Shown here: one piece after another, positions 1,610-60,896 of the stretch
Layout of the letters: each line of letters opens with the position of its first letter
Numbering within the stretch: the stretch's first letter is position 1
Made by a program: the position numbers and the translations under genes
Origin: a phage
Strand: one strand, 5' to 3'
Sequence record: PZ452609.1
Length of the DNA: 64,000 nucleotides
Notes under the pieces: generated by a model
Database searches by the model: none
Seen by the model: only the letters and a program-made list of their open reading frames with translations
What the model was told of the DNA's origin: nothing

Positions 1610-3085
1610 GTGAGAAGAATGGCAGATATTACAGAAACACAAGAAAGCTTACCACCATTTAGAATGGGTGAAGTAGGTTCTTTGGGTCTGAAGGTTAAGA
1701 ATGGAAGAATCTATGAAGAACCTCGTCAGGCACTAAGGTTCCCTGAAAGTATTAAAACTTTCCAATTAATGATGCGTGACCCTGCTGTAGCAGCATCTGT
1801 AAATATTATTAAGATGTTTGTCAGAAAAGTCAACTGGAGATTCGTACCTCCAAAGGGAAAAGAGCAAGACCCTAAAATGCTTGAAAGAGCAGACTTCTTT
1901 AATTCTTTAATGGATGACATGGAGCATGATTGGGCAGATTTTATTAATTCTGTAATGTCATTCTGCACTTATGGGTTCTGTGTTAACGAGAAAGTTTATA
2001 AGAAGCGACAGGGTAAAAAAGGAAAGTACCAGTCAAAATTTGATGATGGTCTAATTGGATGGGCTAAATTGCCAATCAGAAACCAATCAACACTTGATAA
2101 GTGGTATTTTGATGAAGACTTTAGAAAAGTTACAGGTGTTAGGCAGAATCTGAGAAATGTTTCACATATTGCTGGAGCAATTAATCTCGGAGAAAGACCA
2201 CTAACAAGAAAACTTCCACGAGCTAAATTCATGCTGTTCAAGTATGACGATGAATATGGAAATCCAGAAGGTCGTTCACCATTACTTAATGCTTATGTAC
2301 CGTGGAAGTATAAAGTTCAGATTGAAGAGTACGAAGCTGTTGGTGTTTCAAGAGACTTGGTAGGTATGCCAAAGATTGGTTTGCCACCAGATTATCTGGA
2401 TGAAAATGCAGAACCTGAAAAGAAAGCTTTCGTACAATACTGCAAAACTGTTGTTAATGATATGATTGCTAATGACAGAGCAGGTTTAATCTGGCCTAGA
2501 TATATCGACCCAGATACTAAAGAGGATATTTTCGAGTTCTCATTAGTTTCTAGACAGGGTGCTAAAGCATACGATACAGGTTCTATTATTGACAGATATT
2601 CCAAGCAGATTATGATGGCATTTATGTCAGATGTTCTTGCTATGGGTCAGTCAAAATACGGTTCATTCTCTCTTGCAGATTCTAAGACAAGCTTACTAGC
2701 GATGTCGGTAGATATTCTGCTGAAGCAAATTAAGAACGTAATTAACCGTGATTTAGTTGCACAGACTTATGCTCTTAATATGTGGGATGATGAAGAACAT
2801 GTACAAATCACATATGATGATATCGAAACTCCAGACCTTGAAGCAATTGGTTCTTATATTCAGAAGACTGTTGCAGTAGGTGCTTTGGAAGTTGACAAAG
2901 AGCTATCTAACAAGCTTAGAGAGCATATTGGTCTTCCTCCTGCTGATGAGTCTCAGCCAGTATCTGAAAAGCTTTCTCCAAATAGCCAAAGCCGCTCAGG
3001 AGATGGTTATAAGACCGCTGGAGAAGGTACTGCAAAGACACCTTCAGCGAAAGACCCAAGCACAGCAAATAAGGCAAATAAATAA
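1610..3085 (+). CDS. portal protein (putative); ATG at 1619 is a likelier start than GTG 1610
   Basis: 491 aa ORF directly downstream of terminase, upstream of protease and capsid; RBS aggtgag before ATG 1619. Confidence 0.55.
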   Translation: MRRMADITETQESLPPFRMGEVGSLGLKVKNGRIYEEPRQALRFPESIKTFQLMMRDPAVAASVNIIKMFVRKVNWRFVPPKGKEQDPKMLERADFFNSLMDDMEHDWADFINSVMSFCTYGFCVNEKVYKKRQGKKGKYQSKFDDGLIGWAKLPIRNQSTLDKWYFDEDFRKVTGVRQNLRNVSHIAGAINLGERPLTRKLPRAKFMLFKYDDEYGNPEGRSPLLNAYVPWKYKVQIEEYEAVGVSRDLVGMPKIGLPPDYLDENAEPEKKAFVQYCKTVVNDMIANDRAGLIWPRYIDPDTKEDIFEFSLVSRQGAKAYDTGSIIDRYSKQIMMAFMSDVLAMGQSKYGSFSLADSKTSLLAMSVDILLKQIKNVINRDLVAQTYALNMWDDEEHVQITYDDIETPDLEAIGSYIQKTVAVGALEVDKELSNKLREHIGLPPADESQPVSEKLSPNSQSRSGDGYKTAGEGTAKTPSAKDPSTANKANK

Positions 3086-27680: not shown

Positions 27681-28781
27681 TTACTCATAATCCCTAATAA
27701 CTAGCCCTACAGGAAACTGTAAAGAACCCTTACGAGTCATCTTCTGGAACTGAACCGTTAAAGGTTTCCCGATAAACTCATCAGGATGCTCAGCAAGGTA
27801 CTGTTTCTTCTCATGAGTAGTCTTCCATGAGACATCTACAAAGACGTTAGGAAGAGTCTCTACAACGAACTTACCATGACCACGTTTATCAGTCTTTACA
27901 CCAGTCACTTTAAACTCTTCAGTGTGCATCTTCTTGTGCTTAATCAAGAAGTATGAACGGTGACAACACTCATAGAAGGAGTCTTCAGAGATTGAACGGT
28001 ACATTGCACCTTCAAACTTAACTTCAACCCACTTATCATGAGCTTCATCAAATTCTTCCCAAGAGTTTACACGACGAGACTTAACAGGGACAACTTTACA
28101 GCCATCTCCCAAGTCATTCAATGGTGAAGTCTCAATAATATCCCTACGTTCAGGCCACGTCTTAGTGCTATCACAGATGTCATACCAGTAAAACTTAAGA
28201 AGATGTCTGTCTGGGTTGTCTTCATTTTTAATCATGGAGACAATATCTTCTAAGTCCCACCCATGAGCATAAACCTCCCCGTCAAACTCATCAACGTCTG
28301 CATGGAGTCTTAACATAGTCATAATGTCAGGTGTTAGCTCAGTAGGTATTTTATAAACAGTATTCTCACGAGAATAAGCCGTGAAACTAACTGAATCATC
28401 ACCTCTTGAAATTCTACAACGGACACCATCAAGTTTTGGTTGAGCATCAGCAGGGAACTTCAGATACTTTGCATGGCTAACCTTTGCAGCATCATGAGCA
28501 AGCTGTACACCTACCTTCTCAGTATTCTGTGCAGACTCTTTTGTGTAAGCGTAACCTTTACGGTCTACTTGTTTCTTATACTTAGCAGAAACTTCAAAGA
28601 GAGCTTGCTGTTCAGCGTTACGCTCATTCTTTTTACCGATGTTCTTAGGCTCTGCTGTGTACTCTTCAAACATCATCTTGCCATTTTCTTTACCATAGGT
28701 TGTGATAACTTTGTCACCTACAGCAACACATGACCAGACGTTGAAGGAACCATCTTTATTTTGTTTGTACAGAATTGTCAT
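27681..28781 (-). CDS. lig: ATP-dependent DNA ligase
   Basis: motif I KLDGVRC (KxDGxR adenylation site); ~366 aa like T7-type ligases; start 28781 has RBS gaggt. Confidence 0.8.
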   Translation of the reverse strand: MTILYKQNKDGSFNVWSCVAVGDKVITTYGKENGKMMFEEYTAEPKNIGKKNERNAEQQALFEVSAKYKKQVDRKGYAYTKESAQNTEKVGVQLAHDAAKVSHAKYLKFPADAQPKLDGVRCRISRGDDSVSFTAYSRENTVYKIPTELTPDIMTMLRLHADVDEFDGEVYAHGWDLEDIVSMIKNEDNPDRHLLKFYWYDICDSTKTWPERRDIIETSPLNDLGDGCKVVPVKSRRVNSWEEFDEAHDKWVEVKFEGAMYRSISEDSFYECCHRSYFLIKHKKMHTEEFKVTGVKTDKRGHGKFVVETLPNVFVDVSWKTTHEKKQYLAEHPDEFIGKPLTVQFQKMTRKGSLQFPVGLVIRDYE

Positions 28782-28986
28782 TTTTAACCTCTGAGTGATA
28801 CCAAGTGTCACAAGCATTACATGCGTAAAGCTCTAAGTCATTTTTATCTGGTTTATGGAAACAGTTTGACCCACAACGACACCGGAATAACTTACCATCA
28901 ACACGAAGAATGAATGTTTCAAGCTCACCCTCTTCTGTAAGGACGGCGTTATTATATTTGTTATCTTTATCCATTTGTACTCTCAC
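28756..28986 (-). CDS. zinc-finger protein
   Basis: CRCGSNC ... CNAC Cys pairs; 76 aa. Confidence 0.4.
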   Translation of the reverse strand: MRVQMDKDNKYNNAVLTEEGELETFILRVDGKLFRCRCGSNCFHKPDKNDLELYACNACDTWYHSEVKNDNSVQTK

Positions 28987-29347: not shown

Positions 29348-29605
29348 TCACTCAATAACCGTAGTATGTGATTGACCATTTTTGCCATAGCTATAAGATG
29401 TTGTTGTTTGAGAGTTTGGGCATCTGACAACAACAATATCTCTGCTTATAGCATCACCATTGAGTTTGTAGATTTTGCAGTCTTGCATCTCTGGAGGGAG
29501 GCTGTAAGAAGCATCTTTGTTTTCATAAGATGGGTTGCAGCCAGCCAGAAAAATTACTCCAAGTGCAACCATTGCTTTCACACAACTCTTAACCTTATTG
29601 TTCAC
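29348..29605 (-). CDS. lipoprotein (signal peptidase II substrate)
   Basis: MNNKVKSCVKAMVALGVIFLAGC: positively charged n-region, hydrophobic core, lipobox L-A-G-C; GTG start with RBS gagagg. Confidence 0.55.
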   Translation of the reverse strand: MNNKVKSCVKAMVALGVIFLAGCNPSYENKDASYSLPPEMQDCKIYKLNGDAISRDIVVVRCPNSQTTTSYSYGKNGQSHTTVIE

Positions 29606-29741
29606 GATAGTCTACCTCTCTGTATGTTTTTAAATAGTGAGTGATGAGTTCTGGTAAGTCACTACGTTTAACGTTTGAACGAAGAAGTGTCCAGTCAAAA
29701 CCTTTACCAACCCTTCCCCAGAGACTGTACATTTTCTTCAT
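29595..29741 (-). CDS. small basic protein (48 aa, not in ORF track)
   Basis: ATG overlaps upstream stop as ATGA; RBS ggag 6 nt upstream. Confidence 0.3.
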   Translation of the reverse strand: MKKMYSLWGRVGKGFDWTLLRSNVKRSDLPELITHYLKTYREVDYREQ

Positions 29742-30162: not shown

Positions 30163-30223
30163 AAGCCCTCCTATATAAGATATAGTATAAGGTACTCTTC
30201 CATGAGAACCTTGTCAATACTAA

Positions 30224-32933
30224 TTAGTGAACCTCAAGCCAGCTTTTACCAACCTTACCAGTACCTGTAACAAGTGTTTCTTTCTTAAGACCTAAGTTTT
30301 TAGAAGCTTGTCCATAATACCAGTCAGTAACTGCTTTCACTTCTGCCGTCATACTTTCTGGACATTCCCAACTTGTTTCATCGTGATATGCGCAGAGCAA
30401 ACGAGCACCAATAGCTGGTTGACGACCATTCAATTTCATCAAACCTTCGTCAATCATACGACGACAAGCAAGGTTGATTGCCTCATTTTGAATCTGAGCC
30501 TCTGAACCCATCAAAAGGTAGTTCAACAGTTTGTGTGGAGATTTACACCACAACCAAGCTCCAGCAACCTTTACGAAGCCCCCTTTAGAGATTGCAGCGG
30601 TCTTACCAAACACCTCTTCAAGTGCCTTCTTAGTTGCTTTGTAGTCAGCTTCCAAGTTATCTAATAGTTTCTTAATCTTTGGCAAACGCACAAAGTAAGT
30701 CTGTTTAGTTAATGCACCTTCCTGAGTAGTGGCTGCCTTAATAGTTTTAGCAAACTTTTCATCACCTGCACCGAACAGTAGTGCATAGATACCATTCTTA
30801 GCTTTCTTACGACCTTTGCTAATCTCATGAAGAAGATTCTCATCCTGAGTAGCTCGACAAGTCAAGATATCCTGCTCATCATTCAAGCTAAAGTAAATAC
30901 TGTTCAGTGTATGTGCATCAGTCCCTGAATAGACAACGTACAGGTCATTCTCAGAGTCATAGCGAAGGTACTTATCAATTTCTGGGTTTAGGTACTCATC
31001 AAAATGTTTGCAGTAATAGCGTCCATCTTCTTGACGAATAAACTCAATCTCTTCTTTACCTTGCGTTACCGCTTTGGTGAAGTCTTTGTCACCCATAAAG
31101 TTACAAAGGAGAACTAGCTGGGCTGAGTTCATGTCTACAGAGACAACATTAGTACCTTCTTCACAAATCCACACTGCCCTCATTGGTTCCCCATAGACAG
31201 CCGCACCAGACGGTACGTTTACAATACCATATTGTGTCATACGTCCAGTTGAAGTACCAAATACCATTGCACCAGCACTAAGGCGACCATCTGGACGAAT
31301 CTGGTTCAGCCAACCTTTCTCGTCATCCTTTGAGTTCTCAATAGTTCTGCGTCTGTGCATCAAAGTGTAGTACTTAGCAATCTTCTGTCCAAGCTCACCT
31401 TCAATCGTATCATAAGATGATTCAGTAAGTTTTGGTGAAGTACGGATTAAGCAAGGCTCAAGCAAATCTGTGTATTTCTTCACAGACCAGTTATGCTCAA
31501 TGTACTGTACACCTTCATGCTCAACATAGCTCAAACCACACCGCTCAACCATTTCCTGCCACTTAGGATGCTTTGTAATCATCTTTTTATTGTCTTTGAA
31601 ACGACAAACTTTGACAGGGCGACCATCTGAGTCTTTCTTGTAGTTCCAGTCATCTGGAATCCAACCAACTGATTTCAAGTAGTCTTTAACAACTGCTACC
31701 TGAGTCATACGAGAAACTTCAAACTCAATTGGTGTATATGGTGCATCAATCAAACCTGTGTAGCGACTCGACTCAAGCTCAAAGTGGTTAACAACGTGGC
31801 TATTATAGTACTTCACAGTTTTGACTGTTTTTACTGGCTTCCAGTCTTTGCATTTCTTACCAATCTTTGCGTTCAACTCATTGCAAATTGCACGAGCATC
31901 CTTCATTGCTACAAAGCCTTCCTTGTACTCTTCACCAGTTACAGAGTTGGTTGGTGTATAGCAATTTCTCTTTTCAATGTTAAAAATCTTTGTAGTTGGC
32001 TTACCAAATGGCTTGATTTCGTATGTCTGCATCTCACCGTTACGTACCTGTTGACGATACTTTGTTTTAGGGTACTTGGTAATTCTCTTCAGTCCATCTG
32101 CATGACCGAATGTTTCAACATACTCATTCCAAGCTTTTGCAAACTCTTCTCCAGTGACTTTACCTTTGGTCTTAATAGTTGGAGGTAGATGTGGTTCAAC
32201 CTCTGAAGCAAGTTCATTAGTCAATTTGTCAAGCTCCTTTACATGGAACTCCATAAGCTCTTTATCAGCTTTCCAACCATTGATAGCCTGTTGGCTCATC
32301 CAGAAAGATGTCTCTTTAGCTCGCATGTAAGTTTCATAAGTGTCTATACCACACTTCTTAAGCTTGAGATACTCGTTATCAAGTGCCCGTTTAGTTTTGG
32401 CGTTAATACGGATATCTTCTACAACACGAGTGAAGATTTCTGCATTCCACACACCCCAATGCTCAATCTCTGGTTTACGAACACCAACACGAGCACCCCA
32501 TGCAGCCAAACCATGAGCACCTTTATAACCCTTTGGAGTTGGTCTATCCATCCACTGAACACGAGACTGGATAAGAGAGTCCTGAAAGAAATTACTCCAC
32601 GGCTTACATTTTGGATTATCAAAGTTCCATAAATCCGGTGCAATGTGATTGAAAACCCACCAGTCATAACCGAGACCATTATGGATACAAAGTCGTTTTG
32701 CCTTCAACGCAAACTCAATACCTTCACGTAATCCACCCTTGATGTACTTAGTGTACTTGTGACCGAGAATAGGCTCATCAGTAAAGACCCATACTGGTGG
32801 TTCTTCGTCGTCAGATTTGTAGTCTGCAAAAGCCATTACGTGAACTTTAGTGAACTCAAGGAGTAAACCATCAGTTTCTGTATCACCAACCAAATGTAAG
32901 TTTTTAAAATCTACGTTTTCCATTTTTACTCCC
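30224..32933 (-). CDS. DNA polymerase, family A, with 3'-5' exonuclease domain
   Basis: Exo I motif DTETDGL near N-terminus; C-terminal CAYHDE (motif C HDE); start 32933 has RBS gagggag. Confidence 0.85.
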
Positions 32934-32983
32934 TCTAAAATCATTAACCCCATACATTACTGCAAAAAATTATAAAAAGCAAG

Positions 32984-58638: not shown

Positions 58639-59187
58639 ATGAAGAAATTGATTCTAGGTTTGTGCTTAATGTTTACAGCACACTTATCTTATGCAGTTGA
58701 CTGCCCAGAACTATCAATTAGCCAAAAAGTGAACATGTTAAAAGCTTACCAGTATGGTGAGAATAACATGGGTAAAGGTTGGGGTATCACTCTAGCAGCT
58801 ATAGCCTTACAAGAGTCAGAGTTAGGTCTGAAGGTAGAAAATAAAAAGACCCATGACTATGGTATCTTCCAGAATCACTTGAAGACTGTTGTAAAGCGTA
58901 ACAAAATTAGTCCTAATGTTGCTAAAAAGAAACTCTTAAAAGATTTTGACTATGCCGCAAAAGAAACACATAAAGAGCTTGAGTTTTGGACGAAGGTGCA
59001 TGGTCACCCAAAGTCAAAGAAGACTTTACAAAAAGTTTTAGCATCATATAATGCTGGGTATTCGTACAGAATCCCTAAAGCTAAGAAATATTCTCAAGAT
59101 GTCTATAACAACATGAAAGTTATTGCTCAATGTGAATTTGCAACAAACATTTCTAAGGTAAACCATGAAAAAATTAAAAAAGTCTGA
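58639..59187 (+). CDS. secreted lytic transglycosylase-like protein (putative endolysin)
   Basis: signal peptide MKKLILGLCLMFTAHLSYA; SLT-like core AIALQESELG...DYGIFQ. Confidence 0.5.
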   Translation: MKKLILGLCLMFTAHLSYAVDCPELSISQKVNMLKAYQYGENNMGKGWGITLAAIALQESELGLKVENKKTHDYGIFQNHLKTVVKRNKISPNVAKKKLLKDFDYAAKETHKELEFWTKVHGHPKSKKTLQKVLASYNAGYSYRIPKAKKYSQDVYNNMKVIAQCEFATNISKVNHEKIKKV

Positions 59188-60388: not shown

Positions 60389-60736
60389 ATGACATTTAAA
60401 GAGTTCTGTCAAGCTACTTTCATAATTGTTTTCTTAGTTGGGGCAGGTGTCTGGGGAGGATACTCTTACAGAGACTACCAAGTTGCTGAAACTGAGCTAA
60501 ACAACCAGAAGCTAATAAGTGTTGCTAAAGATGCTTATCAGGAAGGATTAGCTACACTGAGCACCAATTACAAAAATGATTTGAAAGACGTGCTTGCTAA
60601 GAATAAGCACACAAAAGAGGTACTGACATATGAAAAGACTAAGCCAGAGTTTTATAATGTTTGTGTTACTGATAACTATGTCAGGGTGTTCAACGAACAA
60701 AGTGAGCAATACATTCAAAAACTCCCAAGTAAGTGA
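60389..60736 (+). CDS. i-spanin-like protein (Rz-like, putative)
   Basis: N-terminal TM anchor FIIVFLVGAGVWGG then helical periplasmic domain; 3' end overlaps a lipoprotein ORF in another frame. Confidence 0.4.
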   Translation: MTFKEFCQATFIIVFLVGAGVWGGYSYRDYQVAETELNNQKLISVAKDAYQEGLATLSTNYKNDLKDVLAKNKHTKEVLTYEKTKPEFYNVCVTDNYVRVFNEQSEQYIQKLPSK

Positions 60737-60896
60737 AAGTGATAAGTACACTCAGGAAGATGTAAGATATGCTGTCAAAGGTAACACTGGTGCAGACTTA
60801 TCAGAAGCCCTTGAGTTTTATCGTGACGGGTACTATCAGTGTACTATGAAAGCTAACAACTTGATTGATATGATTTTATTAGGGAATAAGCAGTAA
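60630..60896 (+). CDS. o-spanin-like lipoprotein (Rz1-like, putative), embedded/overlapping
   Basis: MKRLSQSFIMFVLLITMSGC lipobox-like signal; begins inside the preceding gene in +1 frame. Confidence 0.35.
   Translation: MKRLSQSFIMFVLLITMSGCSTNKVSNTFKNSQVSESDKYTQEDVRYAVKGNTGADLSEALEFYRDGYYQCTMKANNLIDMILLGNKQ

Follow-up and report, generated by a model that had tools for sequence, protein, structure and literature searches.

A 64,000-nt stretch of phage DNA (record PZ452609.1; the whole stretch is called the window below, and all coordinates are window positions unless another record is named) carries, among replication genes, a small open reading frame (ORF) whose 85-aa product begins with the signal peptide of a bacterial lipoprotein. 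The locus raises the question of which family this protein belongs to and what a lipoprotein encoded between a DNA polymerase gene and a DNA ligase gene might do in the infected cell. The ORF is almost certainly a genuine Felixounavirus gene, equivalent to ORF91 of Felix O1, that encodes a small lipoprotein of the DUF4884 / PHROG 902 family, and the probable site of action of this lipoprotein is the host periplasm, where what it acts on is probably not the receptor used by the phage itself.

The DUF4884 lipoprotein and its conserved features

The target protein, which reads MNNKVKSCVKAMVALGVIFLAGC and continues with NPSYENK, is the orthologue of Felix O1 ORF91 (Felix01p170; 98.8% protein identity). 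It matches phrog_902, a family of unknown function, with an E value of 2.9e-18, and the same PHROG was matched by all 37 aligned family members. Precomputed annotation assigns the Pfam family PF16225 (DUF4884) to cluster P0001, which is 96% identical to the target, and to nearly every homologue, and the hit was obtained at E<=1e-5 in contig look-ups. A profile search of 1.84 billion cluster representatives (50% identity) returned 1,283 sequences at E<=1e-3, with 720 at E<=1e-10, and the family representatives are nearly all 75-110 aa long. When the window was searched with the family hidden Markov model, the target ORF was the sole match (E 2.5e-29), showing the gene to be present in a single copy.

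The precursor carries a bacterial-type lipoprotein signal, MNNKVKSCVKAMVALGVIFLAG followed by the lipobox Cys and then NPSYENK, with a basic n-region, a hydrophobic core of 12 residues and an LAG-C lipobox (Table 1). Both lipobox and signal peptide were present in 192/192 homologues inspected (the regular expression used scored 183, the other nine having the variants FGC, YGC and MGC), confirming the lipoprotein signal that a first-pass annotation had assigned to the 85-aa ORF. The mature protein has Asn at +2 and Pro at +3, in agreement, as judged from sequence, with the '+2 rule' for outer-membrane sorting in E. coli. The true start is uncertain because there is a second in-frame GTG at 29581, and because many orthologues are 78 aa long and start with an ATG one codon ahead of the position of that GTG; a lipoprotein signal results from every candidate start. 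When the ORFs on either strand of the window were scanned for a lipobox from every possible start, three candidates were returned, namely the target, the outer-membrane spanin (o-spanin) described below, and a 64-aa ORF at 1726-1920 (minus strand), which matched the loose expression (…LGSC…) and is a candidate only.

Conservation of the family extends well beyond the signal peptide. In alignments of 9, 37 and 150 sequences the lipid-modified Cys (C23) and two further cysteines, C43 and C62, are invariant, and P37, P63, G74 and K75 are almost invariant. The family signature consists of the lipid Cys, ~20 residues, D-C-K-x-Y, 16-18 residues, and V-V-R-C-P-N-S-x-T-T-T-x-Y-x-x-G-K; the median spacing from the lipid Cys to the first core Cys is 20 residues across the family, and the target has C23, C43, C62, P63, G74 and K75 all in place. 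The number of cysteines in the mature part is even in 182/185 members (two in 168, four in 14), as is expected of proteins that form disulfides in the oxidising periplasm. The mature regions of the window and of typing phage 1 differ by 17 synonymous and 5 non-synonymous changes (dN/dS 0.05), and the gene is evidently under strong purifying selection.

AlphaFold2 returned a mean predicted local distance difference test score (pLDDT) of 62 for the precursor and 70 for the mature protein modelled with the 150-sequence alignment. The mature model is a small beta-sheet with strands at mature residues 4-7, 22-27, 35-39, 45-51 and 54-60, in which C43 lies directly ahead of the second strand and C62 directly past the third. 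As both cysteines are invariant and flank a predicted beta-hairpin, a C43-C62 disulfide closing this hairpin is presumed. A phmmer search of PDB sequences with the single target sequence gave no match.

Several members of the family (P0082, P0127, P0167, P0029, P0051 and P0137, all outside the window) have C-terminal extensions, one type consisting of a repeated (V/I)-(D/N)-G-(V/E)-(T/E)-Y-x-K motif and the other of a conserved L-x-K-L-(T/S)-x-(E/D)-E-(R/I)-(K/E)-A-L-G tail. Felix-type members have neither, being without the tail as well as the (V/I)DGxEY extension or repeats of some relatives, and otherwise nothing sets them apart. In NCBIfam, the LptM, TrbK, EexN and MliC lipoprotein families gave weak matches only (E 0.016-0.2); homology to these families was rejected, the matches being judged to reflect a common signal peptide. 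The PADLOC models gave no match to the target.

Genome context and distribution of the family

Judged from its sequence, the source of the window is a Felix O1-like myophage; when 6 kb surrounding the gene was used as query, 263 phage records matched, almost all of them Felixounavirus at 90-96% identity. The minus strand carries an unbroken run of DNA polymerase (30224-32953), four small ORFs, the lipoprotein gene, three small ORFs and DNA ligase (27681-28817), and the placement of the gene in a leftward unit with polymerase and ligase by the first-pass annotation is therefore correct. The overlap with an upstream 48-aa ORF, which the same annotation had reported, is also real: the stop of this ORF, the equivalent of Felix O1 ORF92, overlaps the GTG start of the lipoprotein gene by 11 nt, a layout that is kept in Felixounaviruses and not in other phages carrying DUF4884. 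In Felix O1, genes 96 to 80 are regarded as one leftward transcription unit beginning at the polymerase, and reverse-transcription PCR (RT-PCR) placed the peak of ORF95 at 5 min and those of ORFs 87-90, 93 and 96 at 25 min, with none at 60 min (PMC3185647). Early-to-middle transcription of the lipoprotein gene can reasonably be inferred from these flanking ORFs. A scan of the region for consensus promoters and terminators gave matches at background level only.

An HNH homing endonuclease gene is located between the DNA polymerase gene and the small ORFs in ASO1B and Felix O1 (L001 7482-7994 and L053 3288-3791). At 30163-30223 the window is without this gene, a presence/absence polymorphism of a mobile endonuclease.

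The family is spread widely over phages. A tblastn search found it in 592 phage records, 394 of them at under 60% identity, including ~300 Vibrio phages together with phages of Acinetobacter, Erwinia, Klebsiella and Pseudomonas. Eight distant copies were retrieved, from a T5-like Vibrio phage, the Erwinia jumbo phage pEa_SNUABM_44, the E. coli jumbo phage phAPEC6, a Certrevirus, two other Vequintavirinae or Acinetobacter phages, an Obolenskvirus and a T4-like Pseudomonas phage, and all eight have a signal peptide and lipobox. Further carriers are Acinetobacter Saclayvirus, T4-like Aeromonas and Acinetobacter phages, and a Yersinia phage. The contigs carrying family members are phage-sized, at 20 to 352 kb.

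At every locus examined, the gene is one of a series of small early or accessory ORFs, and functions in replication or host takeover are encoded close by, among them ligase, primase, helicase, origin-binding protein, rIIA/rIIB, dam and sigma/anti-sigma factors, with denV-type, macro, Tpt1 and NUDIX domains also found in neighbouring products. No tail-fibre or receptor-binding gene adjoins the family gene in any of these loci; in typing phage 1 the tail-fibre genes lie ~8 kb from the lipoprotein gene, in a separate transcription unit. All-against-all clustering of the ORFs within 3 kb of the gene, at 34 loci of independent lineages, identified no neighbour common across lineages: the sole cross-lineage cluster was the lipoprotein itself, and the remaining clusters were confined to close relatives. 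Small membrane proteins adjoin the gene in several loci and are mutually unrelated. The only functional association near any family member is in the unannotated record of Acinetobacter phage SHI, where a gene ~220 nt downstream of the DUF4884 gene (L006 3452-3661) encodes a superinfection-immunity protein of the T4 Imm type (PF14373, E 5e-14, above the Pfam cut-off).

Outside phage genomes, the pattern VVRCPNS[SQT]T was sought in 185,579 species-representative genomes of GTDB and gave a single chromosomal copy, that of Hylemonella gracilis (Table 1). Inspection by eye of the ORF translations around this copy indicated a truncated ComM-type gene, an XRE-type regulator, a secreted endonuclease/exonuclease/phosphatase-like protein and a large coiled-coil ATPase-like ORF, and by its gene content the locus looks like a mobile or defence island. 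One DUF4884 cluster (P0048, P0213-P0216) is found on Acinetobacter baumannii replicons of ~111-115 kb, some of which are labelled as plasmids, and a plasmid search gave two partial matches (H119, H120), both on Acinetobacter replicons of ~113 kb. The replicons of ~111-115 kb may be phage-plasmids, in which case DUF4884 would not be strictly confined to virulent phages.

Table 1 Features of the lipoprotein gene, its upstream neighbour, the spanin genes of the window, and the chromosomal family member
Feature	Position	Strand	Details
Lipoprotein precursor, coding sequence, 85 aa	29348..29605	minus	GTG start 29605, stop TGA 29348-29350; from the ORF list
Signal peptide, residues 1-22	29540..29605	minus	n-region K4, K6, K10; hydrophobic core AMVALGVIFLAG
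Lipobox L20-A21-G22-C23	29537..29548	minus	C23 is the predicted lipid-modified first mature residue
Polar tether, residues 24-34 (NPSYENKDASY)	29504..29536	minus	low sequence conservation in alignments
Conserved core domain, residues 35-85	29351..29503	minus	motif S-L-P-x-E-M-x-D-C43-K-I-Y ... V-V-R-C62-P-N-S-x-T-T-T-x-Y-x-Y-G-K
Shine-Dalgarno GAGG	29615..29618	minus	9 nt upstream of GTG 29605, read from the sequence
Alternative in-frame GTG start, codon 9	29579..29581	minus	77-aa precursor MKAMVALGVIFLAGC..., lipobox unchanged
Upstream 48-aa ORF, Felix O1 ORF92	29595..29741	minus	phrog_2381, E 1.3e-21; no transmembrane segment
Inner-membrane spanin (i-spanin), 115 aa	60389-60736	plus	N-terminal transmembrane segment; phrog_1152 'Rz-like spanin', E 9e-42
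o-spanin lipoprotein, 88 aa	60630-60896	plus	lipobox MSG-C; start inside the i-spanin gene
Chromosomal DUF4884 copy (L010)	NZ_AEGR01000062.1 6004-6282		Hylemonella gracilis ATCC 19624

Comparison with receptor-blocking lipoproteins and spanins

The proposal of the first-pass annotation that the protein masks the phage's own receptor was drawn by analogy with Llp of phage T5, which is likewise a small, periplasmic lipoprotein of a virulent phage with pre-late expression (PMC9586334). This analogy was not supported. A profile search of all PDB sequences aligned the T5 Llp chain 8a60_B at residues 1-18 only (E 1.1), which is the signal peptide, so that the mature domain is without similarity, and there was no fold match. 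The T5 llp gene adjoins, on its downstream side, the gene for the receptor-binding protein pb5 (PMC9586334), whereas the target gene lies between polymerase and ligase; and Llp is specific for FhuA, whereas DUF4884 spans phages with unrelated receptors.

The Cor proteins of T1, phi80 and N15 (phrog_1119, 'Cor superinfection exclusion protein') resemble the target in being small lipoproteins with cysteines in the mature part, and there are weak PHROG cross-matches: phrog_1119 matched 9/37 family members (best E 1.2e-6, for one distant member), the target not being among them. However, hhalign comparison of the family profile with T1 Cor and with an 11-sequence Cor profile aligned 19-20 columns, all of them in the signal peptide and lipobox; membership in the Cor family was rejected on this ground, and the weak phrog_1119 matches can be attributed to the signal peptide. 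The Cor motifs C-x-A-x-Y-E-S-G-G ... A-G-Y-P-F-S-F ... H-D-C differ from those of DUF4884, no Cor homologue has a PF16225 annotation, and T1 cor directly follows the tail genes, whereas the target is not near the tail-fibre genes. Comparison with Rtp45 by hhalign gave 17 signal-peptide and lipobox columns at a probability of 25%, and homology was rejected as nothing aligned past this region; the rtp45 gene adjoins rtp44 and a J-like tail gene. Rtp45 is an LptDE-binding exclusion lipoprotein with disulfide cysteines (PMC12685063), and it shows that lipoproteins of this kind can target a conserved essential machine. The Rtp45-type proteins of Rtp and Oekolampad share 35% identity and diverge along with the receptor-binding protein (PMC12685063), in contrast to the DUF4884 core, which stays conserved from one phage family to another. 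Llp, Cor and Rtp45, the non-spanin lipoproteins of virulent coliphages that have been characterised, are all exclusion factors (PMC9586334, PMC12685063).

The o-spanins, both of the lambda Rz1 type and of this phage itself, are likewise small phage lipoproteins predicted for the outer membrane. The window has its own overlapping i-/o-spanin pair at 60389-60896, 31 kb from the target gene, and the target was rejected as an o-spanin for this reason; many relatives label the two genes of the pair as i-/o-spanin and many leave one or both as hypothetical. A hydrophobic segment is absent from both ORFs next to the target (48 aa and 67 aa), which hence provide no i-spanin partner. With 4 Pro in its 62 residues, the mature part of the target is not rich in proline, and a five-stranded beta-domain is predicted for it (pLDDT 70); unlike o-spanins, the target does not lie in a late transcription unit. 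The first-pass annotation was therefore right that the gene is far from the lysis genes, as regards the spanins, and that its product is unlikely to be the o-spanin.

Also in the lysis region, ~1.2 kb upstream of the spanins, is a 182-aa ORF (58639-59187, plus strand) with an apparent cleavable signal peptide, MKKLILGLCLMFTAHLSYA before VD. The ORF gave a match (E 1e-57) to phrog_600, a PHROG of unknown function, and inspection by eye pointed to a motif of transglycosylase type, 'QESELG'. Its product could be a secreted peptidoglycan-active protein.

Candidate roles of the lipoprotein

The explanation that is favoured, although tentatively, is that the protein is a lipid-tethered binder of a conserved envelope component that brings about receptor-independent exclusion or envelope protection. 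The gene would be transcribed together with the replication genes in early to middle infection, and the precursor would be exported by Sec, lipidated at Cys23 by Lgt and cleaved by signal peptidase II. The 11-residue polar tether would then hold the ~50-residue beta-domain, locked by the Cys43-Cys62 disulfide, in the periplasm, where its conserved face (D-C-K-x-Y, V-V-R-C-P-N-S-x-T-T-T, G-K) would bind a periplasm-exposed component that is conserved in Gram-negative hosts and is not this phage's own receptor. The envelope altered in this way would resist secondary insults, whether the entry of DNA from a superinfecting phage or damage ahead of programmed lysis, and the lipoprotein would act alone, without a dedicated phage partner. 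The functional model for this explanation is provided by Imm and Sp (spackle) of the virulent myophage T4, early envelope proteins that block entry after adsorption independently of the receptor; to our knowledge neither is a lipoprotein, and neither has a sequence relationship to the target.

Masking of the phage's own receptor is disfavoured because the core domain is common to phages with unrelated tails and hosts, because the gene is never linked to receptor-binding genes, and because there is no partner gene; on the same three facts a conserved target in the envelope is favoured, with an outcome that does not depend on the receptor. Exclusion is favoured as the outcome because the characterised non-spanin lipoproteins of coliphages are exclusion factors and because of the single Imm adjacency, evidence that is circumstantial. 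Of the superinfection exclusion suggested by the first-pass annotation, the receptor-masking form is thus unsupported, and the broader, receptor-independent form is possible and is the leading guess.

A number of observations weigh against the favoured explanation. The Imm adjacency is limited to one lineage, and a search for an Imm-like gene in the 64-kb window found none. Our own hmmscan of the target and 8 homologues against Pfam-A gave no DUF4884 match at E<=10, unlike the precomputed annotation, and neither a characterised homologue nor literature on the function of DUF4884 was found, mentions being limited to names in tables (for one T1-like phage and one Bacteroides thetaiotaomicron protein). 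The structural model is only moderately confident at either pLDDT, and comparison of the predicted structure with PDB folds returned no informative match. ORF91 was outside the Felix O1 RT-PCR set, as was ORF92 (PMC3185647). Outer-membrane anchoring is not a constant of the family, as the +2 residue varies (Asp in 36/183, Glu in 42/183), and some homologues in phages of enteric bacteria begin C-D-A/G/P and may remain in the inner membrane; this in turn suggests that the site of action is the periplasm, which the tethered domain could reach from either membrane. Damaged alleles also occur: ASO1B (L001 6616-6873) has P63Q, a change of a near-invariant Pro, P0006 combines C62Y with a fusion to the N-terminus of the upstream 48-aa ORF, and P0012 has a frameshift after residue ~44. 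As such alleles are found in some isolates or metagenomic copies, the gene appears to be accessory and dispensable for propagation.

Four other roles were weighed. The lipoprotein might take part in host takeover or envelope conditioning without exclusion, its domain inhibiting or redirecting a conserved periplasmic machine (for example peptidoglycan hydrolases or lytic transglycosylases, components of Lpt, Bam or Lol, or an envelope-stress sensor) so as to keep the cell intact until holin-triggered lysis or to tune lysis timing. This fits a family distribution that is independent of receptor type, a protein predicted to be periplasmic, gene neighbourhoods that in many phages include host-takeover genes, and damaged copies in some isolates that suggest an accessory fitness function. 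Similarity to known lysozyme or transglycosylase inhibitors is lacking, however, the NCBIfam matches to MliC and LptM-like families being weak (E 0.07-0.2), there is no structural match, and no phage lipoprotein is known to us to condition the envelope in this way; this role is considered unlikely, although not markedly so. A lower probability is given to masking of the type of Llp, Cor and Rtp45, in which the protein would bind, from the periplasmic side, the outer-membrane structure that serves this phage for adsorption or DNA entry, so that neither further Felix O1-like particles nor, after lysis, progeny phage could use it. A small lipoprotein with a +2 Asn predicting outer-membrane sorting, with disulfide cysteines as in Rtp45 (PMC12685063), with weak matches to the Cor PHROG in 9/37 family members and with presumed expression alongside early or middle genes would suit this role. 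Against it are the alignment of Cor, Rtp45 and Llp at the signal peptide and lipobox only, the absence of PF16225 from Cor homologues, and a gene position without the linkage to receptor-binding genes seen for llp, cor and rtp45. The core is moreover common to phages of Vibrio, Acinetobacter, Pseudomonas, Erwinia and E. coli that have unrelated tails, which counts against masking because receptor blockers are expected to diverge with the receptor, and the receptor of Felix O1 is lipopolysaccharide (LPS; PMC3185647).

An anti-defence factor, neutralising a host defence that exposes its sensor or effector in the periplasm or membranes, would be in keeping with an accessory-region gene of many virulent phages and with the sole chromosomal copy, in Hylemonella gracilis, lying in an apparent mobile island beside a truncated ComM-type gene (by eye); given that PADLOC gave no match, that no link to a known defence was seen, and that an exported lipoprotein is an unusual format for an anti-defence protein, such a role is thought improbable. 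Hardly any weight is placed on a second o-spanin or spanin accessory that contributes to outer-membrane disruption at lysis. The protein is a small lipoprotein of outer-membrane type, a few family members weakly match PHROG families of Rz-like spanins, and the spanin genes of T4 also lie apart from its other lysis genes, but the phage has a complete i-/o-spanin pair, the target has no adjacent type-II membrane partner, its mature part is predicted to fold and is not proline-rich, and in Felix O1 transcription of the unit peaks at 5-25 min and not late.

If the favoured explanation, a tethered binder of a conserved envelope component, is taken further, DUF4884 could represent an unrecognised class of periplasmic effector, deployed early by many unrelated virulent phages of Gram-negative bacteria against one conserved envelope machine, such as that for the export of LPS, of outer-membrane proteins or of lipoproteins, or that for peptidoglycan remodelling, and its effect would be either exclusion independent of the receptor or takeover of the envelope; this wider proposal is more doubtful than the explanation from which it extends. 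The protein was already known as a GenBank hypothetical protein since the sequencing of Felix O1, its family is numbered as a DUF in Pfam, and the label 'lipoprotein' had already been given to several of its members. Added here are the size of the family, its invariant anchor and presumed disulfide, its independence from neighbouring genes, the explicit exclusion of membership in the Llp, Cor, Rtp45 and spanin groups, and the argument against receptor-specific masking. The outcome is a well-founded annotation and a testable lead, and not a demonstrated new mechanism.

Phages of the Felix O1 type serve in Salmonella typing and are candidates for biocontrol, and a factor of theirs that excludes other phages or modifies the envelope, if this is what the lipoprotein is, could affect mixed-phage cocktails and behaviour at high multiplicity. 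Of the families of small phage proteins that are uncharacterised, DUF4884 is one of the larger, with carriers among T4-like, T5-like, jumbo, Felix-like and Acinetobacter phages, and its invariant lipid anchor and presumed disulfide make the family experimentally tractable. A receptor-independent periplasmic effector would, if confirmed, be a strategy unlike that of the receptor-specific, tail-gene-linked Llp, Cor and Rtp45, and the target of DUF4884 would then reveal a conserved weak point of the Gram-negative envelope.

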